Under the pieces are notes generated by a model that was given only the letters and a program-made list of their open reading frames with translations, ran no database searches and was not told the origin of the DNA. DNA of 43,119 nucleotides from Actinomycetota bacterium (GTDB taxonomy: Bacteria > Actinomycetota > Thermoleophilia > Gaiellales > Gaiellaceae), in contig JACDGR010000001.1 of NCBI GenBank assembly GCA_013821525.1, positions 1-43,119 on the forward strand, in the 5' to 3' direction. The position numbers and the translations under genes were made by a program. This document shows positions 1,371 through 31,150 of the stretch, in pieces. The stretch's first letter is position 1. Each line of letters begins with the position of its first letter.

Positions 1371-2639
1371 TCACGAGACGGTGACCGACTTCCACGTCGA
1401 ACCGACGCGGACCCAGATCTTCGACGCGGTCGTGTCGACGACGATCGCGCCCGACGCGACGCCCTCGGGGAAGTCCGCGTCGACCGGCGTGCCCGCCTTT
1501 ACCATCGTGCAGAGGCCACCCTCGAAGTGCGTGAACATCGGCTGGTTCGACCAGCTCTTCGCAACGCTGTCCTGGACGAGTATCTCCATGAAGTCGCCGA
1601 GCACGCCAAGGAACGGACTGCCGGTCACGAACGGATCGCAGGTACCGGAGACGGCGTTGATACGGAGCGTGTTGCGCCCCGCGGTGTTCAGCACGTTGAC
1701 GCCCGACCCGCCCGCCGTGAAGTTGTTCATGAAGACACCGTTGACGGTGGCGTACGTGCAGTGGTACGTGGCGTCGCCGATCTGGATGCCGCACTCGCCA
1801 CTCACGTTGTTGCCATAGATCGTGCCGCCCGACCAGGCGCTCCCCGAGGTCAGCAGCAGGTTCGCCCTGAACGCACCCTCAGCGACGCAGTTCGAGTAGA
1901 ACGTCTGGTTCGCTGCGAACGGGTAGAAGCCGTAATGGACGCGACCCCAGACGTGGACGTTCGTAAACAACTCGCCCGCCGCGCCACCACCGCCGAGGTT
2001 GGAGCCCTTGAGGTAGACGCCGTACGCGGTCGTTCCACCGGAGGTGATCAAGGAGTCGAGCGTCTGGACGACCCCGTTGACGAAGATCGAGTCGTGCGGG
2101 CCAGACCAGTAGAGGCCGCAGCCGGATCGGAACTCGCGGATCTTGAAGTTCGACCAGTACGCCTCCATGTCGTTCCCGCCGACGCCCCACTCCGACCACG
2201 CGCCACCCGACGCGCCGTTCACGAACTCGACGTTGTTGACGCGGTAGCAGTAGCCGTAGACGCGGAACGTCCAACCGCTCGTGTTGCCGGCCTTGTTGCC
2301 GTCGAGGGTCAGGTCGCAGATCGTGAAGTGGCTGATGCCGTTCGTCGTGATCGTGCCGGTCAGGTCGGCAAAACCGACACTGGTCAGCAGATCAGCGTTC
2401 GTGCCCGACTTCAACTTGATCGTCGTCGTCGCGACGCCCGAGCCGCAAAGCGTGACCTTCGACCCGATCACGAGCGTCGAACAGAGGTACGTACCGGGTG
2501 GCAGCAGCACGATCCCGCCACTGATGGCGGCAGCGTCGAGCGCGGCCTGGATCGCGGCCGTGTCGTCCGTCACGCCGTCGCCGGTGCCCGTGTACCGAGC
2601 GACACCAGCGAGCGACGCGACCTCGATCGCTCCCGCCAT
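1371..2639 (-). CDS. Tailspike / polysaccharide depolymerase, right-handed beta-helix (pectate-lyase-3-like), paralog A
   Basis: Track ORF 1371..3059 trimmed to the internal ATG at 2639 (MAGAIEVASLAGVARYTGTGDGVTDDTAAIQAALDAAAISGGIVLLPPGTYL...). That ATG overlaps the TAA of the upstream gene (TAATG), and the 140 residues upstream are Arg-rich and look off-frame. 422 aa. Confidence 0.8.
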   Translation of the reverse strand: MAGAIEVASLAGVARYTGTGDGVTDDTAAIQAALDAAAISGGIVLLPPGTYLCSTLVIGSKVTLCGSGVATTTIKLKSGTNADLLTSVGFADLTGTITTNGISHFTICDLTLDGNKAGNTSGWTFRVYGYCYRVNNVEFVNGASGGAWSEWGVGGNDMEAYWSNFKIREFRSGCGLYWSGPHDSIFVNGVVQTLDSLITSGGTTAYGVYLKGSNLGGGGAAGELFTNVHVWGRVHYGFYPFAANQTFYSNCVAEGAFRANLLLTSGSAWSGGTIYGNNVSGECGIQIGDATYHCTYATVNGVFMNNFTAGGSGVNVLNTAGRNTLRINAVSGTCDPFVTGSPFLGVLGDFMEILVQDSVAKSWSNQPMFTHFEGGLCTMVKAGTPVDADFPEGVASGAIVVDTTASKIWVRVGSTWKSVTVS

Positions 2640-4390
2640 TAGACGAACATTCCCGGGAGGCAGGCGGTCGCCATCCTGATGTGACCCGTGTAAGACGGGT
2701 GTAGGCCGTCGATCGTGTACGGGCCGATAGTGGTGTCGGCCTTCCAGAGGCCCGAGTCGCGACTCGTCTCTACGGCGTCCGCCGCCTCGATCACGAGGTC
2801 GCAGAGGCCGCTGGCACCCGCACGGATCCACGCGTTTGCGGCTTTCCGTACCAGCCCCGCTCCGGCCGCGAGCGTCTCCGTCTGGTTGGCGACGGTCGTC
2901 CAGCCGTCCGAACTCGTCGTGCGTGGCGTGATCGTCGACATCGCGACCTTCAAGCCTCTCTGCTTCGCCCATCCGCAGATCGTGGCTGTGTCGGCCTGCC
3001 ACTGTGCGAGCGTGCGACCACCGTAGATGTCGTTTGTGCCGTACGCGTAGAGCAGCCACTTTCCGATACCGAACAGGCCCCGGCGCTGAACACCGTTCGT
3101 GTTCGCGGCGAACTGCTGAGCCGACTCACCACTCTTCGACATCGGCAGCACCGGGTGCGTCGGCTCGAGCGCGATCGTCGCGTACGACTCGAGCGTCCGA
3201 AAGTAGTTCCCCGTGCCAGACAGGATCGAATCTCCGAGCATGACGATAGACGACGGAGCGTTTGACGTGTAGTCAGCAGTAACGGCGGTCGGCACGGGGA
3301 TCACGACGGAACCACCAGAGTTCGTGTTCGCAAACGCGACTCCGCTCGCGTGGGCAATCGTGAGTGGTGCGGTGAGGTAGACCGTGTAGGGATTCGCGAC
3401 GCCCACGATCGTGCGAGCCGTTACCGTTTCAACGTTTCCAGCGGTGTCCAGCGTGAACGTCTGACCACGTAGGGGAGTCGCCGCGTTGACGACCTGCAGC
3501 GTGGTGTCACCGATGTTGGTGGCGGCAGCGAGCGTCGTAGATCCCGATACGGCTGCAACTCCGAACGTACCCGAGTAGATATCGAACGTCGAGAGGTTCG
3601 ACGATGCGGTCGCACCCTGGTCGCTCGAGATCTCGCGATTCGTCCAAACGCCCTGACCGACAACACTGCCAGCAGCGGTGTGGTTCGCGACGAGTACGGC
3701 GCGCAGCGTCGCCGTGTACGGGCTCGACGCTGTCGTCATCCTGATGATCTCTACAACCTCTGTGCCGGAACCGCCGATGCGCATTCGCAGCGGCGAGGGA
3801 CGGTCGACGGGGAGATCGGTTAGCGTGATCGACGAAGCGCCGAGCGTGACGTCGGCTGCTAGCGTGGTGTACCCGCTCGTTGGCACGAGGTTCGTCGAGT
3901 TGTTCGGCGCGAGGATCCGCGTGCGCGCGTAGTACGTCGCGCCTGCTGGTACGTCGGCAGCCACCGGGTCGCTGGTCAGCAGACCGTACCGGTCGAGTCG
4001 CCCGAACCGGTTGCCGCCGAACGTGACGGGATAGATCGTGCCCGACGGGTACTCCAGTGCCGCCTCTATAAGGACTTCGTTGTCGGGGAGAATGTCGGTG
4101 TTCGCGCCCGCCCCGTAGATGAACCGGACGCCGCTCATCGAACCGTACGCCGTGAGCGGCATCCGCCCGGCAAGGATGTTGTTGGGTGTCGCGATTCCCA
4201 GGGCGGAGCGTGCTGGCGCGGCGACTACTAGACGACCCTCGGTGACTCCGAGATCGCTCAGTACGGCCTGGCCGTTGACGAGAAGCTGGCCGCTGGTCGA
4301 CTGGAGAACCGTCTGGTTCGGCGTGTTTCCTAGGAAGATCGGCCCGCCAACGCCGACAGATCCAGAGAACTGTTCGTCCGCTTGTGCCAT
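2639..4390 (-). CDS. Tail fibre protein with C-terminal SGNH/GDSL esterase domain
   Basis: Start at the internal ATG 4390 (MAQADEQFSG...), which forms a TAATG overlap with the upstream stop. 583 aa. The C-terminal part carries SGNH blocks in order: MLGDSILSG (block I Ser), YGTNDIYGG (block III), IDGLHPSYTGH (block V, D-x-x-H). Confidence 0.8.
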   Translation of the reverse strand: MAQADEQFSGSVGVGGPIFLGNTPNQTVLQSTSGQLLVNGQAVLSDLGVTEGRLVVAAPARSALGIATPNNILAGRMPLTAYGSMSGVRFIYGAGANTDILPDNEVLIEAALEYPSGTIYPVTFGGNRFGRLDRYGLLTSDPVAADVPAGATYYARTRILAPNNSTNLVPTSGYTTLAADVTLGASSITLTDLPVDRPSPLRMRIGGSGTEVVEIIRMTTASSPYTATLRAVLVANHTAAGSVVGQGVWTNREISSDQGATASSNLSTFDIYSGTFGVAAVSGSTTLAAATNIGDTTLQVVNAATPLRGQTFTLDTAGNVETVTARTIVGVANPYTVYLTAPLTIAHASGVAFANTNSGGSVVIPVPTAVTADYTSNAPSSIVMLGDSILSGTGNYFRTLESYATIALEPTHPVLPMSKSGESAQQFAANTNGVQRRGLFGIGKWLLYAYGTNDIYGGRTLAQWQADTATICGWAKQRGLKVAMSTITPRTTSSDGWTTVANQTETLAAGAGLVRKAANAWIRAGASGLCDLVIEAADAVETSRDSGLWKADTTIGPYTIDGLHPSYTGHIRMATACLPGMFV

Positions 4391-26599: not shown

Positions 26600-27328
26600 C
26601 TACCGAGACGCCAGATCCTTCACGACGCACGCGTCCGCGTTGTGGCCGAACAACCAGTCCATCGTCTTGTACGGCAACCAAACGAGACGGTCTCCTCGCA
26701 CCCACCCGTTGCCCCACGTGTTCGAGAGGCCGAACGCCTGCCGTTCGTCGCTGCAACCCCAGATCCCGATCTCGTGACCGCCGGCTGACGAGCCCGCCCG
26801 GTCGACGTCCTGGAGCCAGTATTCGCCGGGGTGCTTCTCGACGGGCTGGAACCACGCCGATAGCCAGTCGATGCCGATCAGCACCGGCTGCGGCTTCGGC
26901 GCGGCGAATACGCTGCGGATCTCATCGACGGTCTGCGCCCACGTGTTCGACTCGATGCCGTGTTTCTTGTCCGGCCCCGTCTTCGTGTTCTTGCCCTTGA
27001 TGCGCCGCCAGTGGCCCTTGGAGCGGAGCACGTCGCAGGCGGCTCGTGCGTTCGTGCCGTCAACGCCGGGCATCCCGTCGACCTCTTTCGCCCGCGCGTA
27101 GAGCCATTCGGCGTCGAACGCGAACTGGTTGAAGTGGTTCATCACCTTCGACGTCGCGTACGCCACGCAGTGCGGGGTGTTGCCCTGGTCGTACTGGTCG
27201 AGCGTTGGTCGCTTGATCTGTACCTCTACGTGATCCGGTGGTGGGCCGGCGGAGAACGCGTGCAGCTGAAGGTGCCACGAATCATCAGGCGCGACTCGCC
27301 CGAGCAGGTGCGCTCCGTACTCGCTCAT
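26600..27328 (-). CDS. Papain-like cysteine peptidase (family C1 signature)
   Basis: Internal ATG 27328 (MSEYGAHLLG...) overlaps the upstream TGA (ATGA). QGNTPHCVAYATS has Gln six residues before the Cys, as in papain Q19/C25. AGGHEIGIWG provides the His, and LSNTWGNGWVRGD matches the N-S-W-G type Asn/Trp box. 242 aa. Confidence 0.75.
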   Translation of the reverse strand: MSEYGAHLLGRVAPDDSWHLQLHAFSAGPPPDHVEVQIKRPTLDQYDQGNTPHCVAYATSKVMNHFNQFAFDAEWLYARAKEVDGMPGVDGTNARAACDVLRSKGHWRRIKGKNTKTGPDKKHGIESNTWAQTVDEIRSVFAAPKPQPVLIGIDWLSAWFQPVEKHPGEYWLQDVDRAGSSAGGHEIGIWGCSDERQAFGLSNTWGNGWVRGDRLVWLPYKTMDWLFGHNADACVVKDLASR

Positions 27329-27702
27329 GCTGCGTCCGGCGGGTCGATCGGTGTGTCGATCATGTCTGCGACCTCGCGGAAGAACGACGCCGGCACGGTG
27401 CACGTGTTCGACCGCTGTCCGGGCGTGTCGACGCTGATCGTGAACGTCTCCGGGTCGGTGCCGACGCTACGTACGTGGGCGGTGTTCTTCCGCTTGTCGA
27501 TGAACCAATGCACGTTGCTGGGCATGCGGGTGCTCCTCGTGTCTGGGGATAGCGTGCGGGGTGTCGGATAGTCGTCGTTGAGATAGTCGCGCGCGACTGG
27601 CCCGGGTCGGACGATCGGGAATCCGGATGGGCTCAGGTCGGTCATGCGTTTGCCGTCGAAGCGGCCTTCGTTGAAGTCGCTCGGGTCGTACGGTTCACGC
27701 AT
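27325..27702 (-). CDS. Hypothetical protein (125 aa)
   Basis: ORF-track entry. 8-nt overlap with the upstream gene and ATGA coupling downstream. Confidence 0.6.
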   Translation of the reverse strand: MREPYDPSDFNEGRFDGKRMTDLSPSGFPIVRPGPVARDYLNDDYPTPRTLSPDTRSTRMPSNVHWFIDKRKNTAHVRSVGTDPETFTISVDTPGQRSNTCTVPASFFREVADMIDTPIDPPDAA

Positions 27703-27937
27703 CGCTCCCCCGGATCTCGTCGAGCACTTCGCGGACGTCGGCGTCTTCGTGCTGGTGGACTTCCACCCGTGCTGCTTGCCACGCGCTCCAGTGGGCGGAG
27801 ACGAGCGCCCAGAGGGAGAGCGCGGAGACGTAGATGACGCTTTTGACCCATCCGGTGGCGAGCGAGACGGGGATCATGAAGACCCAGAACAGGGTTAGCC
27901 AGCCGTTGAGGCGGCGCATCAGGATGGGCGAACCCAC
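27695..27937 (-). CDS. Two-TM membrane protein (80 aa), holin/antiholin-like
   Basis: Hydrophobic segments WLTLFWVFMIPVSLATGW and VIYVSALSLWALVSAHW, with an acidic C-terminal tail. Located 20 nt downstream of the endolysin gene. Confidence 0.6.
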   Translation of the reverse strand: MGSPILMRRLNGWLTLFWVFMIPVSLATGWVKSVIYVSALSLWALVSAHWSAWQAARVEVHQHEDADVREVLDEIRGSDA

Positions 27938-27957: not shown

Positions 27958-28707
27958 TCAGGAGACGTCCCGCCGGCAGCCGTAGATCGGCCGGTAGTGG
28001 AGTTCGCGGTTCTGCGGGCCGGGCTCGCCACCGAACGAGAGCACCGATACGCGCGGATGCCCGATGTAGATGCCGACGTGCGAGTTCGAGCCGTAGTGGA
28101 CGCGATCTCCGGTGACGGCCAACAGTGACGAGACCGCCCTACCCTTGTCGATCATGGTGTACGTCGTCGGCCATGGGCTCAGGTCGGGGTCGGGTAGTCC
28201 CACTTCTCGGGTGGCCAGGTGGATGAGTGCGGCGACGGTCGAAGAGCAGTCTCCGTAGACGTTCCGCTGGGTGGAGGGATCGCCGCCACGGTTGAGCAGA
28301 TCCATGCGACGGGGCCCCTGGGTGTAGACCCAGTCGTTTCGGTTGCCGGCGATCGCGAGCGCCCACTGCACGAGCAGCGCGTGGTAGGCATGAACCTTCC
28401 TCTCATGCTCGAGTTCGACGAGGCGCTTGCGGCCGGCGGGGGTGTACCACTGGGCGAGCGCGTTGTGGACGTGCGGCCCGAAGGTGTTCGTGACGGGGAT
28501 CGAGTGGAGCTGCTGGAAGTGCCCGACCTGGAGCGATGTCGGGTGCAGCCAGTCGCCGGTAGGCCCGTAGAGTCGTAGTTTGTGGTCGTCTGGGTGGAGG
28601 CGGTGGCGTTTGATCGACCATGCCTGTAGGGCGCCTTGGATGGCGACGACGGCGGGGCCGTGGGCGCCTTCCTTGAGGGGGCCGGGGTACGGGGCGGCGT
28701 CAGCCAT
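27958..28707 (-). CDS. Endolysin candidate: N-terminal peptidoglycan-binding repeat plus C-terminal NlpC/P60-like cysteine peptidase
   Basis: 249 aa. GPLKEGAHGPAVVAIQGALQAW matches the PG_binding_1 style. YGDCSSTVAALIH...SNSHVGIYIGH gives the Cys...His order of NlpC/P60. Confidence 0.7.
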   Translation of the reverse strand: MADAAPYPGPLKEGAHGPAVVAIQGALQAWSIKRHRLHPDDHKLRLYGPTGDWLHPTSLQVGHFQQLHSIPVTNTFGPHVHNALAQWYTPAGRKRLVELEHERKVHAYHALLVQWALAIAGNRNDWVYTQGPRRMDLLNRGGDPSTQRNVYGDCSSTVAALIHLATREVGLPDPDLSPWPTTYTMIDKGRAVSSLLAVTGDRVHYGSNSHVGIYIGHPRVSVLSFGGEPGPQNRELHYRPIYGCRRDVS

Positions 28708-28990
28708 CGGCAGGGGGGGTGCGTGAGACGTTCGCGTCGTTTCCGTCGACGGCGGGGTAGGTGGTCTTGTCGGCGAGGGTGGGGACGGGCAGCGGGTCGA
28801 TGAACTGTCGCCAGATGAAGGAGCCGAGCGCGATGCCGCCAGAGACGGCTGCGGAGCGGGCGAGGCTCCAGTCGACGGGGTTGGTGCCGTTCGCGACGCC
28901 GATCAGGCCAGCGACTGGGTAGACGATGATGAAGGCGGTGATGAAGGATCGAGCGGCTCGGATGAGCGCGCTTTTGAGCGTTGCGGACAT
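28700..28990 (-). CDS. Holin candidate (two TM, r1t-holin-like N-terminus)
   Basis: 96 aa. LKSALIRAARSFITAFIIVYPVAGLIGV and AAVSGGIALGSFIWRQFI are hydrophobic helices. Immediately upstream of the endolysin, with an 8-nt overlap. Confidence 0.55.
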   Translation of the reverse strand: MSATLKSALIRAARSFITAFIIVYPVAGLIGVANGTNPVDWSLARSAAVSGGIALGSFIWRQFIDPLPVPTLADKTTYPAVDGNDANVSRTPPADG

Positions 28991-29044: not shown

Positions 29045-29698
29045 TTAGCTGAACGTGTGGTTCGCGAGCAGGACGATGATCGAGATCACGATCGTCGCGA
29101 CCGTGAAGAGGATCCCGAACGTCGCGCGGGTACCGGCGGCGTTTCCGGTAGCGATGTCGATGCGTCCCGTCAGGACGTTGACTTGTTTCTGTAACGCGCC
29201 AAACGACGTTTCGTAGACCTCACGTGGCACGAACGTCGCGGCCTGGTCGGCCAGCTGCTCGCGGAACGCATTCACTGCATCGAAGCGCTTCTCATTGCTC
29301 TTTTCGAGTTTCTCCGCCGACTCGCGAGCCGCCACGAGTTGCGCCTGGATCAGATCCCGTACGCTGGTGTCCTGCGCGGCAGAGAGTTCCTTCGCGGACG
29401 ACATCGCCGCGTGGATCTGCTTGACCTGCTCCGCGATGTGCTGAAATAGTTGGTCGTGAACGTTCTTGATCGTCGCCTCGAGCGAGCGCCGCAACACCTC
29501 GGCAGCCTTCGACCGCTCAGCGTCCGCAACAGTCGCGGCGCGCTCCTTCTCATGGAAGACCGTGTCGACATGCTGGCGCTGCGCGAGCAACAACGAATGG
29601 AGCTGCTCAAGCTCGACCTCGAAGACGCGGCGCCGCTCGAGGAAGAGCGCGTCCACGTACCCGCGAAGCGAGACCTGGTCATCGTCAGCGACCGGCAC
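29045..29698 (-). CDS. Coiled-coil protein with a single C-terminal TM anchor (217 aa)
   Basis: GTG 29698 preceded by GGGAGG. About 185 aa of heptad-like Glu/Gln/Ala/Arg-rich helix, then GILFTVATIVISIIVLLANHTFS at the extreme C-terminus. Confidence 0.65.
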   Translation of the reverse strand: MPVADDDQVSLRGYVDALFLERRRVFEVELEQLHSLLLAQRQHVDTVFHEKERAATVADAERSKAAEVLRRSLEATIKNVHDQLFQHIAEQVKQIHAAMSSAKELSAAQDTSVRDLIQAQLVAARESAEKLEKSNEKRFDAVNAFREQLADQAATFVPREVYETSFGALQKQVNVLTGRIDIATGNAAGTRATFGILFTVATIVISIIVLLANHTFS

Positions 29699-29737
29699 AT
29701 GCCCTCCCTGCCCCCACCGGGCGTTTCGTGGTGGACG

Positions 29738-29812
29738 TCACCCGCGCAAGAGCAGCACGACGACGACGATGATGATCAGGATCAGCAGGACCGCGCCGCC
29801 GCCGATGTACAT
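29738..29812 (-). CDS. Unlisted micro-ORF, 24-aa hydrophobic peptide
   Basis: MYIGGGAVLLILIIIVVVVLLLRG. The ATG overlaps the upstream TGA (TGATG). It is the C-terminal part of track ORF 29738..29998, whose remainder is Arg/Ser-rich and looks off-frame. Confidence 0.45.
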   Translation of the reverse strand: MYIGGGAVLLILIIIVVVVLLLRG

Positions 29813-29898
29813 CAGCGACCCCAGCGCCCGAGAGCCCACAGGATCAGGATCGCGACGAGTAGCGCGGTGTTGAGCCAGAGATGAGCCTGGATATTCAT
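29812..29898 (-). CDS. Unlisted micro-ORF, 28-aa single-TM peptide
   Basis: MNIQAHLWLNTALLVAILILWALGRWGR. The ATG 29898 overlaps the hydrolase TGA (ATGA) and is preceded by TAGGAGG at 6 nt. Confidence 0.5.
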   Translation of the reverse strand: MNIQAHLWLNTALLVAILILWALGRWGR

Positions 29899-30986
29899 GC
29901 GAACCTCCTAGCACCCGCGAGGATGCTCTGGTAGTGCCCCGCGAGGGGGCTGATCTTGACGACGTCGCCAGTGTGCGGCGCCTGGATGAACTGACCATTG
30001 CCGATGTACATCCCGATGTGCCCGATGCGCCCGCCCTCGGAGAACGCGAGTGCGTCTCCCGGCTGCAGTTGCGACGGGTCGACGGCGCGCCCAGCCTTGA
30101 ACTGGTCTGCTGCGACGCGGGGGATCTTCACGCCGAGCTTGCCCCAGACGTACTGCAGGAGACCGGAGCAGTCGAAGCCACTCTTCGGGTCGGCGGCGCC
30201 GAAGACGTACTTGGTGCCGAGGTAGTGCTTCGCGAGCTCTACGGCCTTCTGGCCTTCGGCGGTCAGGCCCTTCGGCGGGGCGCCTTTGAGTGGCACGGTG
30301 ACGTGTGTCCGAGGCAGCGTCGGCTGCGTCGGCGTCACGGGTTGCGTCTGCTGAGTCGCCATGCTGCTAGCGGTCAGGCTCGAGAAGTCCGGCGCCTGTG
30401 GTGCGAGGGTGCGCTGACCGCTGATCTTGCCGAGCGCGTCGAGTGCACGCTGGTTGCCTTGCTGGCGGAGGTTGTACGACTGCTGGTAGGCGGCGAGGTT
30501 CGGGAGTCCCTGCGTGGTGGGCTGCGGAGCACCTGCGACGGGGGCGCTCGCCTGCGGGGTGGCTGGAAGCGGCTGCCCCGCCGGCGCCACCTGCCCCGGT
30601 AGCCCCGCGTAGCGTGTCCGGTAGTAGCCGAGCGCGGCACGCTCCTCGGCGGGTTTGTCGGCGGGGCGCTCGTAGCGGTAGACGATCTCGTGGATCTGCT
30701 GTTCGGGCGTGAGGCCAGAGAGGTTGAGTCGCGCGAGCGCCTTCGCGGTGTAGTCGGCGCTGACGTTCGGGTTGAGGAAGCGTCGCGGGTTCGGGTCACC
30801 CGTGATCGTCCCACCCGCGTTGTTGTTCTGGAACAAGCCGAATGCGTGGCCGCCGTCGCCGATCGCGGCCGGGTTCAGGCCCGACTCGTGCTGTGCGATC
30901 GCGGCGAGCGGACGCCAGTCGAGCCCGTTCGCGGCAGCAGCCCGCTTGATCGCGGCGAGCGGATCGGGGATTGCGGGATTCGCCAT
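29895..30986 (-). CDS. Bifunctional cell-wall hydrolase: N-terminal lytic transglycosylase (SLT) plus C-terminal NlpC/P60 peptidase
   Basis: 363 aa. AIAQHESGLNPAAIGDGGHAFGLFQ is the SLT signature. FDCSGLLQYVWGKLG...RIGHIGMYIGNGQFIQAPHTGDVV is NlpC/P60. The two domains are joined by a Pro/Gln/Ala-rich linker. Confidence 0.85.
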   Translation of the reverse strand: MANPAIPDPLAAIKRAAAANGLDWRPLAAIAQHESGLNPAAIGDGGHAFGLFQNNNAGGTITGDPNPRRFLNPNVSADYTAKALARLNLSGLTPEQQIHEIVYRYERPADKPAEERAALGYYRTRYAGLPGQVAPAGQPLPATPQASAPVAGAPQPTTQGLPNLAAYQQSYNLRQQGNQRALDALGKISGQRTLAPQAPDFSSLTASSMATQQTQPVTPTQPTLPRTHVTVPLKGAPPKGLTAEGQKAVELAKHYLGTKYVFGAADPKSGFDCSGLLQYVWGKLGVKIPRVAADQFKAGRAVDPSQLQPGDALAFSEGGRIGHIGMYIGNGQFIQAPHTGDVVKISPLAGHYQSILAGARRFA

Positions 30987-31150
30987 CAGGGAGTACCCTC
31001 GCGGGTAGTGGAGAACTGGTTAGCCCAACTGCTCGCCGTAGCGTTCTGCATAGCGCTGTTCGCCGTCGTCCACTTCACGCTCGGCGGCGCGTGGGATGCA
31101 ATCGCGATCATCGCGTGCATCTGCGGATTCGTGTTCTTCACCGGGGTCAT
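30986..31150 (-). CDS. Unlisted small ORF (54 aa), coupled at both ends
   Basis: ATG 31150 overlaps the TGA of the 1218-aa gene (ATGA). Its TGA overlaps the hydrolase ATG (TGATG). The sequence is polar and low-complexity (MTPVKNTNPQMHAMIAIASHAPPSVKW...). See the rejected + strand alternative. Confidence 0.4.
   Translation of the reverse strand: MTPVKNTNPQMHAMIAIASHAPPSVKWTTANSAMQNATASSWANQFSTTREGTP

Follow-up and report, generated by a model that had tools for sequence, protein, structure and literature searches.

What is encoded between the cell wall lysin gene that ends a block of large ejection-type genes and the putative lysis genes that follow it, where two reading frames of fewer than 30 codons stand in what would otherwise be a 196-nt gap? 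The question is raised by the genome of an uncultured phage, which makes up the whole of a 43,119-bp contig (hereafter the window; 65% GC) from a metagenome-assembled genome of 545 contigs. SU10-type major capsid, portal and adaptor proteins identify the window as a phage, and nearly all of its coding-like long ORFs lie on the minus strand. Its capsid protein shares only ~26% identity with the best matches among isolated phages, and blastn and tblastn searches of 50,697 phage records with the micro-ORF region and the neighbouring 217-aa protein returned no DNA or protein match, indicating that this phage is far from any isolated one. The minus-strand gene order is a 1218-aa gene, a 54-aa ORF, an SLT-NlpC/P60 lysin, the two micro-ORFs (ORF1 and ORF2) and the 217-aa gene, followed by genes for proteins of 96, 249, 80 and 125 aa and then a papain-like peptidase. 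A first-pass annotation had reported two coupled micro-ORFs of 28 and 24 aa upstream of genes for a tail-anchored coiled-coil protein and a holin; reading the minus strand reproduces their coordinates, strand and sizes, and the gene order is as described, with the putative holin best termed holin-like. The features of the region are:

29895..30986, minus strand: lysin with SLT and NlpC/P60 domains, 363 aa, probably virion-associated (Pfam NLPC_P60 1e-23, SLT 6e-8)
29904..29909, minus strand: AGGAGG Shine-Dalgarno box within the last codons of the lysin, 5 nt before the ORF1 ATG
29812..29898, minus strand: ORF1, 28 aa plus TGA, hydrophobic helix with a basic C-terminal tail; its ATG overlaps the lysin TGA as ATGA
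29738..29812, minus strand: ORF2, 24 aa plus TGA; one base is common to its ATG and the ORF1 TGA (TGATG)
29699..29737, minus strand: 39-nt spacer with GGGAGGG (29702-29708), on sequence reading the ribosome-binding site of the 217-aa gene
29045..29698, minus strand: tail-anchored coiled-coil protein, 217 aa, GTG start (homologues P0002-P0016)
28700..28990, minus strand: multi-helix holin-like protein, 96 aa (translation read; no family match)
27958..28707, minus strand: probable endolysin, 249 aa (weak CwlO DL-endopeptidase match)
27695..27937, minus strand: two-helix membrane protein, 80 aa (from its translation; found in the protein collection)
26600..27403, minus strand: papain-like (C1) peptidase, last gene of the cassette (phrog_16701 peptidase, 3.5e-17)

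The intrinsic signals of both micro-ORFs resemble those of genes. The start/stop overlaps and the TAGGAGG preceding ORF1 that the first-pass annotation had noted are all present, and GGGG lies 6 nt 5' of the ORF2 ATG. GC content at codon positions 1/2/3 is 0.64/0.43/0.79 in ORF1 and 0.67/0.25/1.00 in ORF2, and in the remaining five frames of the two stretches the GC pattern is not coding-like. A sliding plot of GC at the third position (GC3) moves from the lysin frame to the ORF1 frame and then to the ORF2 frame, switching at the predicted junctions; together with the overlaps and the AGGAGG before ORF1, this supports the view that both are real, translationally coupled genes. The peptides had also been described as essentially single transmembrane helices, and their 17-residue Kyte-Doolittle maxima agree with that description. 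Against a comparison set of 176 ORFs of 20-45 aa from the six frames of the window, ORF1 (2.31) ranks at the top, with the next best at 1.84, and ORF2 (3.72) lies well beyond ORF1, so that the two most hydrophobic short ORFs in 43 kb stand next to each other. ORF2 opens with a Gly-rich head, continues as an Ile/Leu/Val helix and closes with Arg-Gly, and only five residues follow the helix in ORF1 and two in ORF2. From the 1218-aa gene to the 125-aa gene, ORF1 and ORF2 included, neighbouring genes either overlap or are no more than 54 nt apart; leaving out the two micro-ORFs would open a 196-nt gap in this tightly packed late operon. The 54-aa ORF (30986-31150) is likewise coupled on both sides, sharing ATGA with the 1218-aa gene and overlapping the start of the lysin gene, has a GC3 of 0.81 and is predicted by gene callers. 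The opposite strand of this interval encodes two hydrophobic helices with equal GC3, however, and its coding strand is thus not settled.

A longer Arg/Ser-rich frame was said to contain ORF2, and it does exist as an 86-aa ORF (29738-29998) that includes ORF2 in frame. Its upstream part overlaps ORF1 and the lysin gene and is not coding-like; with a GC3 of 0.44 in that part, a frameshift fusion of the lysin to the ORF2 frame was rejected. The DNA of ORF2 is a low-complexity run of ATC/GTC/CTG triplets, and slippage could also produce such a stretch. An RNA element at the micro-ORFs was rejected as well, as the region folds no better than its shuffles (z +1.1) and an Rfam search of it found no family, and so was a terminator between the two modules, since a scan from the lysin gene to the 217-aa gene detected no terminator-like site. 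Searches for homologues of the peptides were negative: a 40-aa read-through query gave no candidate among predicted proteins, a 30-aa HMMER query had no match among 1.84 billion representatives, and the exact sequences of both peptides are absent from a collection of 15 billion proteins. Gene callers skip ORFs this short, so the missing predicted-protein homologues say little either way. Overall, the coding evidence that can be read from the DNA is good, and we estimate at about three chances in four that ORF1 and ORF2 are both real genes.

The gene immediately upstream is informative about both the setting and the translation of ORF1. PHROG matches of the 363-aa lysin are to tail proteins, minor tail proteins or tail proteins with lysin activity, and its relatives (P0018-P0040) are full-length with 42-63% identity, many of them on contigs of ~42 kb. 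Because the gene follows that of the 1218-aa protein and matches tail proteins with lysin activity, we read it as virion-type, probably encoding an ejected virion enzyme rather than an endolysin. The first-pass annotation had placed the micro-ORFs at the head of the lysis cassette. They do lie directly upstream of the lysis genes, but the SLT-NlpC/P60 gene before them is probably not part of the head of that cassette, which locates ORF1 and ORF2 at the border between an ejection block and a lysis block. In the closest relative phage, represented by a 42,694-bp contig (P0035), the cell-wall-cutting domain of this lysin has been swapped, the protein there being SLT plus Peptidase_M23 instead of SLT plus NlpC/P60.

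The AGGAGG box consists of two AGG arginine codons of the lysin, a codon that accounts for 5.8% of the arginine codons of the phage. Of the five AGGAGG occurrences on the coding strand, four are positioned 4-6 nt before a start codon. For comparison, we collected 80 metagenome loci (L010-L089) with a generic NlpC/P60 pattern, which match the C-terminal domain only and are mostly cellular. Many of the cellular genes end in Gly-Ala-Arg-Arg (GARR) with arginine mostly encoded by CGN, and AGGAGG is absent from the last 24 nt of every cellular gene in the set. The single phage relative of the lysin gene compared at the DNA level (L001) has 55% identity over the NlpC/P60 domain only, its N-terminal domain being different, yet it retains AGGAGG (L001 4332-4337), and its next gene starts in a GTGA overlap. 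That gene is a 177-aa ORF in place of the micro-ORFs. Conservation of the box in front of different genes suggests that it is kept for the downstream gene, whichever that may be. In both phages the box is embedded in a conserved Ala-Arg-Arg-Phe end of the lysin (window 29904-29909). In this pair of phages, the lysin C-terminus and the downstream translation signal are thus under joint constraint.

On the other side of the micro-ORFs, the 217-aa protein belongs to a family with an N-terminal coiled coil, a conserved central motif (Glu-Lys-Arg-Phe-Asp...Asn-x-Phe-Arg) and a C-terminal helix. Pfam at E <= 0.001 assigns the 217-aa protein to no family, its one match there (Tlp, E 0.003) being weak and below cut-off. 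PHROG gives it no family either, and a single weak PHROG match came from one of 11 members of its family. An alignment-based scan of IMG/VR recovered 119 relatives with GC contents of 33-73%, and 80 of these were fetched as loci (L094-L173). A sample of 400 cellular genomes from the host's class contained no member. Taken together, these sequences indicate that the family is a widespread, unannotated phage family sitting in lysis cassettes. A likely prophage fragment in a genome of the same host family, judged from its ORFs (L008, G334:C5, 83-1843), carries an endolysin-like gene, two membrane proteins and a 178-aa coiled-coil member, without a micro-ORF. In the window, the 249-aa protein encoded downstream matches CwlO DL-endopeptidase weakly over residues 149-217 (E 0.017) and has no match in Pfam. 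The closest homologue of the 217-aa protein (P0002, 79% identity) is encoded on a 42,694-bp contig, and close relatives of this kind were compared as protein records. Searches for their DNA in IMG/VR, with the 217-aa protein, the lysin, the capsid protein and P0018 and with a two-sequence alignment and two back-translated SLT motifs, retrieved only the distant L001 and L002. GTDB genome contigs gave no match to P0002 or to a motif pattern, and a survey of the whole genus (142 genomes) and of 400 genomes sampled from each of the order, family and class yielded two distant, uninformative matches (G334 and G199).

Comparable micro-ORFs are present beside the coiled-coil gene in other phages. Three independent phages among the 80 loci (L105, L131 and L151/L152) have a single-helix ORF of 23-30 aa packed against that gene. 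In L131 (68% GC), the micro-ORF encodes a helix of 24 aa, overlaps a PG_binding_1 lysin-like gene at its start (GTGA) and stops 3 nt short of the coiled-coil gene; the last codons of the micro-ORF form the ribosome-binding site of the coiled-coil gene. In L105 (64% GC), a helix ORF of 23 aa begins 10 nt downstream of the coiled-coil gene, and its stop codon is joined by a TGATG overlap to the gene of a papain-like (C1) peptidase (L105:3424-4065), which is homologous to the 26600..27403 peptidase of the window (BLASTP E 2e-8). The compact L105 cassette as a whole (1793-4065) encodes, in sequence, a two-helix protein of 74 aa, a protein of 303 aa that lacks a Pfam match, the coiled-coil protein, the micro-ORF peptide and the peptidase; the coiled-coil gene and the peptidase are common to it and the window, which suggests a recurring module. 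In L151/L152 (56% GC), the interval between the coiled-coil gene and the gene that comes after it holds a 30-aa ORF, with 15 nt between it and the former and 12 nt between it and the latter. The C-terminal 22 residues of the L152 peptide resemble ORF2, sharing a Tyr, Ile/Val, Gly-Gly-Gly-Ala head and a Leu-Leu-Leu-Arg end. Their alignment scores 66, a value reached by none of 5000 composition-preserving shuffles, although the resulting p-value is generous since shuffling also destroys the generic head-helix-tail order. As a yardstick, L152 scores 29.6 bits (in a smaller database) against 26.6 bits for the best unrelated match in a 3.6-Mb host genome. Beyond this pair the peptides are alike in composition only, and all five have the same build: the N-terminus carries no charge, a single helix follows, and one or two basic residues close the peptide.

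By a strict definition applied to 72 non-redundant loci, three of the ~15 micro helix ORFs outside the coiled-coil gene fall within the flanking 2.5% of sequence, and only ~4% of family loci have a micro-ORF beside the gene. A looser scan for small helix ORFs upstream of the coiled-coil gene found no excess over controls (11 loci versus 11 in the antisense control), and a general rule of such ORFs preceding the gene was rejected. The association is recurrent, not a rule. The micro-ORF shares its reading frame with the coiled-coil gene in three of the four phages, with one stop and 1-13 codons in between (window, 29738-29812 versus 29698; L131, 2824 versus 2902; L152, 3444 versus 3460), an outcome with a chance expectation of ~11%.

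Known lysis proteins offer the closest functional comparison. Timely lysis by mycobacteriophages depends on holin-like proteins with one helix in an N-out/C-in orientation (PMC13056207), Gordonia phages commonly encode such proteins (PMC9671378), and LysF1b of cluster F1 mycobacteriophages is required for efficient, well-timed lysis (PMC13056207, PMC9671378). Those described are 79-145 aa long with a charged cytoplasmic domain of 52-115 aa (PMC9671378). ORF1 and ORF2 resemble LysF1b and the Gordonia one-TM group in having a single helix with a predicted N-out/C-in topology; in that group the helix is N-terminal and the gene lies in the lysis cassette beside lysins and multi-helix holin-like proteins. 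They differ in being only 28 and 24 aa long, with two to five residues after the helix, and in having no sequence similarity to these proteins. With respect to features expected of holins, each peptide has at least one transmembrane helix, and both genes lie upstream of coiled-coil, holin-like and (by a weak match) endolysin-like genes but are coupled to a virion-type lysin; a charged, hydrophilic cytoplasmic C-terminal domain is lacking in both. Spanin features are also lacking, as neither peptide contains Cys, and hence a lipobox, or an extracytoplasmic domain. It is plausible that ORF1 and ORF2 are a new, very small variant of the holin-like membrane proteins of lysis cassettes.

Other classes of small hydrophobic peptides are similar in one respect or another. 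The type I toxins TisB, Ibs, ShoB and Fst are membrane-depolarising peptides of 19-35 aa that consist essentially of one hydrophobic helix, and loss of membrane potential is a known holin trigger. ORF1 and ORF2 are likewise hydrophobic and under 60 aa, and the Ile/Leu/Val run of ORF2 is similar in style. Type I toxins are controlled by antisense RNA, however, and are not found in translationally coupled operons, whereas ORF1 and ORF2 are part of one and have no demonstrated homology to them. Simple scans for an antisense promoter or RNA found a sole plus-strand promoter-like site (29421-29450), which is inside the 217-aa gene, and no Rfam family. ORF2 also has the Gly-Gly motif, hydrophobic helix and basic end of the NCBIfam model NF041738 (GG_III-CTERM). 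The scores of ORF2 (21.0 bits) and the L152 peptide (16.1 bits) are both under the 22-bit cut-off; in the genome search, the score was 18.3 bits and sub-threshold matches occurred in 9 of 14 control genomes. True membership of ORF2 was therefore rejected, and its match is largely compositional. Moreover, the model describes the C-terminal region of larger proteins, unlike the ORF2 and L152 peptides, which stand alone. Finally, KdpF, AcrZ, MgrB, MgtS and CydX are single-helix proteins of under 50 aa, missed by annotation, that bind larger membrane proteins. ORF1 and ORF2 are like them in size and in having one helix, without homology; these five are cellular and chromosomally encoded.

Our preferred reading, to which we assign a probability of roughly 55%, is that ORF1 and ORF2 are real, separately translated single-pass membrane peptides that are accessory to the lysis cassette. 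Both would be transcribed late, on the long minus-strand mRNA. Ribosomes would load at the AGGAGG in the last codons of the lysin to translate ORF1, and ORF2 would follow by termination-reinitiation at the TGATG overlap. The peptides would then insert into the cytoplasmic membrane in the N-out/C-in orientation, a topology predicted by the positive-inside rule from the uncharged N-terminus and the one or two basic end residues. Most likely, their helices would pack against membrane-spanning segments of the 217-aa protein, or of the 96-aa or 80-aa holin-like proteins, and such packing would tune the timing of the membrane breach. We infer the translation, topology, partners and lysis role alike, the last of these from the position upstream of lysis genes and from the analogous micro-ORFs in the lysis cassettes of three other phages, and a lysis role seems to us the most economical reading. 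As helix-only peptides lack one of the defining features of holins, ORF1 and ORF2 are treated here as accessory helices rather than holins. A bolder and in our judgement doubtful proposal sees in bare-helix peptides of 23-30 aa a class of lysis component that has gone unrecognised, whose N-out/C-in helix would lie antiparallel to the N-in/C-out anchor of the coiled-coil protein and jointly build or gate the lesion, with ORF2 and the L152 peptide as the first sequence family.

The peptides could be real and serve another purpose, by aiding the virion lysin or ejection complex at the membrane, by acting on host membrane proteins or by mediating superinfection exclusion. Such a role would fit the coupling of ORF1 to the stop codon of a virion-type lysin, which closes a block of large ejection-type genes, and the separation of ORF2 from the lysis genes by a 39-nt spacer with its own ribosome-binding site. 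We nevertheless hold it to be unlikely, given that the micro-ORFs of L105, L131 and L152 adjoin coiled-coil, PG-binding lysin-like or C1 peptidase genes, not ejection genes, and that in L001 it is a 177-aa ORF rather than micro-ORFs that comes after the lysin. It is also quite unlikely that the region is a non-functional spacer in which ORFs arose by chance or triplet slippage, serving at most as a ribosome relay with inert products. Short ORFs are common in DNA of 65% GC, the low complexity of the ORF2 DNA is in keeping with such an origin, and no homologue was found for either peptide, but a relay has no need of a pair of strongly hydrophobic products. The GC3 and GC2 patterns are moreover those of coding membrane segments, the two most hydrophobic short ORFs of the window are adjacent, and snugly fitting equivalents recur in three unrelated phages.

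Two further possibilities would change the gene models themselves. ORF1 and ORF2 could be a single two-helix holin-like hairpin of ~52 aa, split by an assembly indel close to the TGATG junction or joined in vivo by programmed frameshifting, in line with the fragmented state of the 545-contig source genome and with the frequency of two-helix holins of 70-90 aa in actinobacteriophages (PMC13056207, PMC9671378). A hairpin would put basic residues in an external loop, contrary to the positive-inside rule, whereas separate peptides keep the charge at each C-terminus. No slippery site was seen at the junction on sequence reading, L105 uses a TGATG overlap at a real junction, and one-helix ORFs of 23-30 aa stand alone in L105, L131 and L152, all of which makes a split hairpin very unlikely. 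More improbable still, ORF2 could be an N-terminal extension of the 217-aa protein produced by TGA read-through, giving a protein with a membrane helix at both ends. The frames do agree, with one TGA and 13 codons between ORF2 and the 217-aa gene and a similar in-frame placement in L131 and L152, but three of four would be in frame by chance ~11% of the time. The 217-aa gene comes with a GGGAGGG site and a GTG start of its own, and in each of the 11 family members aligned the conserved N-terminal motif is preceded by 10-25 residues, without an N-terminal helix.

Accessory membrane peptides of the lysis cassette thus remain our preferred reading of ORF1 and ORF2, which, given similar micro-ORFs in a comparable position in three unrelated phages, are probably genuine components of the lysis machinery that have escaped notice. 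Actinobacterial phages encode a number of small membrane proteins in their lysis cassettes, and genetic work is only beginning to separate their roles. Genes as short as 24-28 codons are below the usual length limit of gene callers, and if such peptides are true lysis parts they would be missing from every annotation. Should they turn out not to matter, the locus would still usefully illustrate how persuasive the intrinsic coding signals of high-GC DNA can be. If, on the other hand, helix-only peptides tune or trigger lysis, they would add a minimal component to the holin model and would provide a handle on the function of a coiled-coil family encoded on more than 100 viral contigs.
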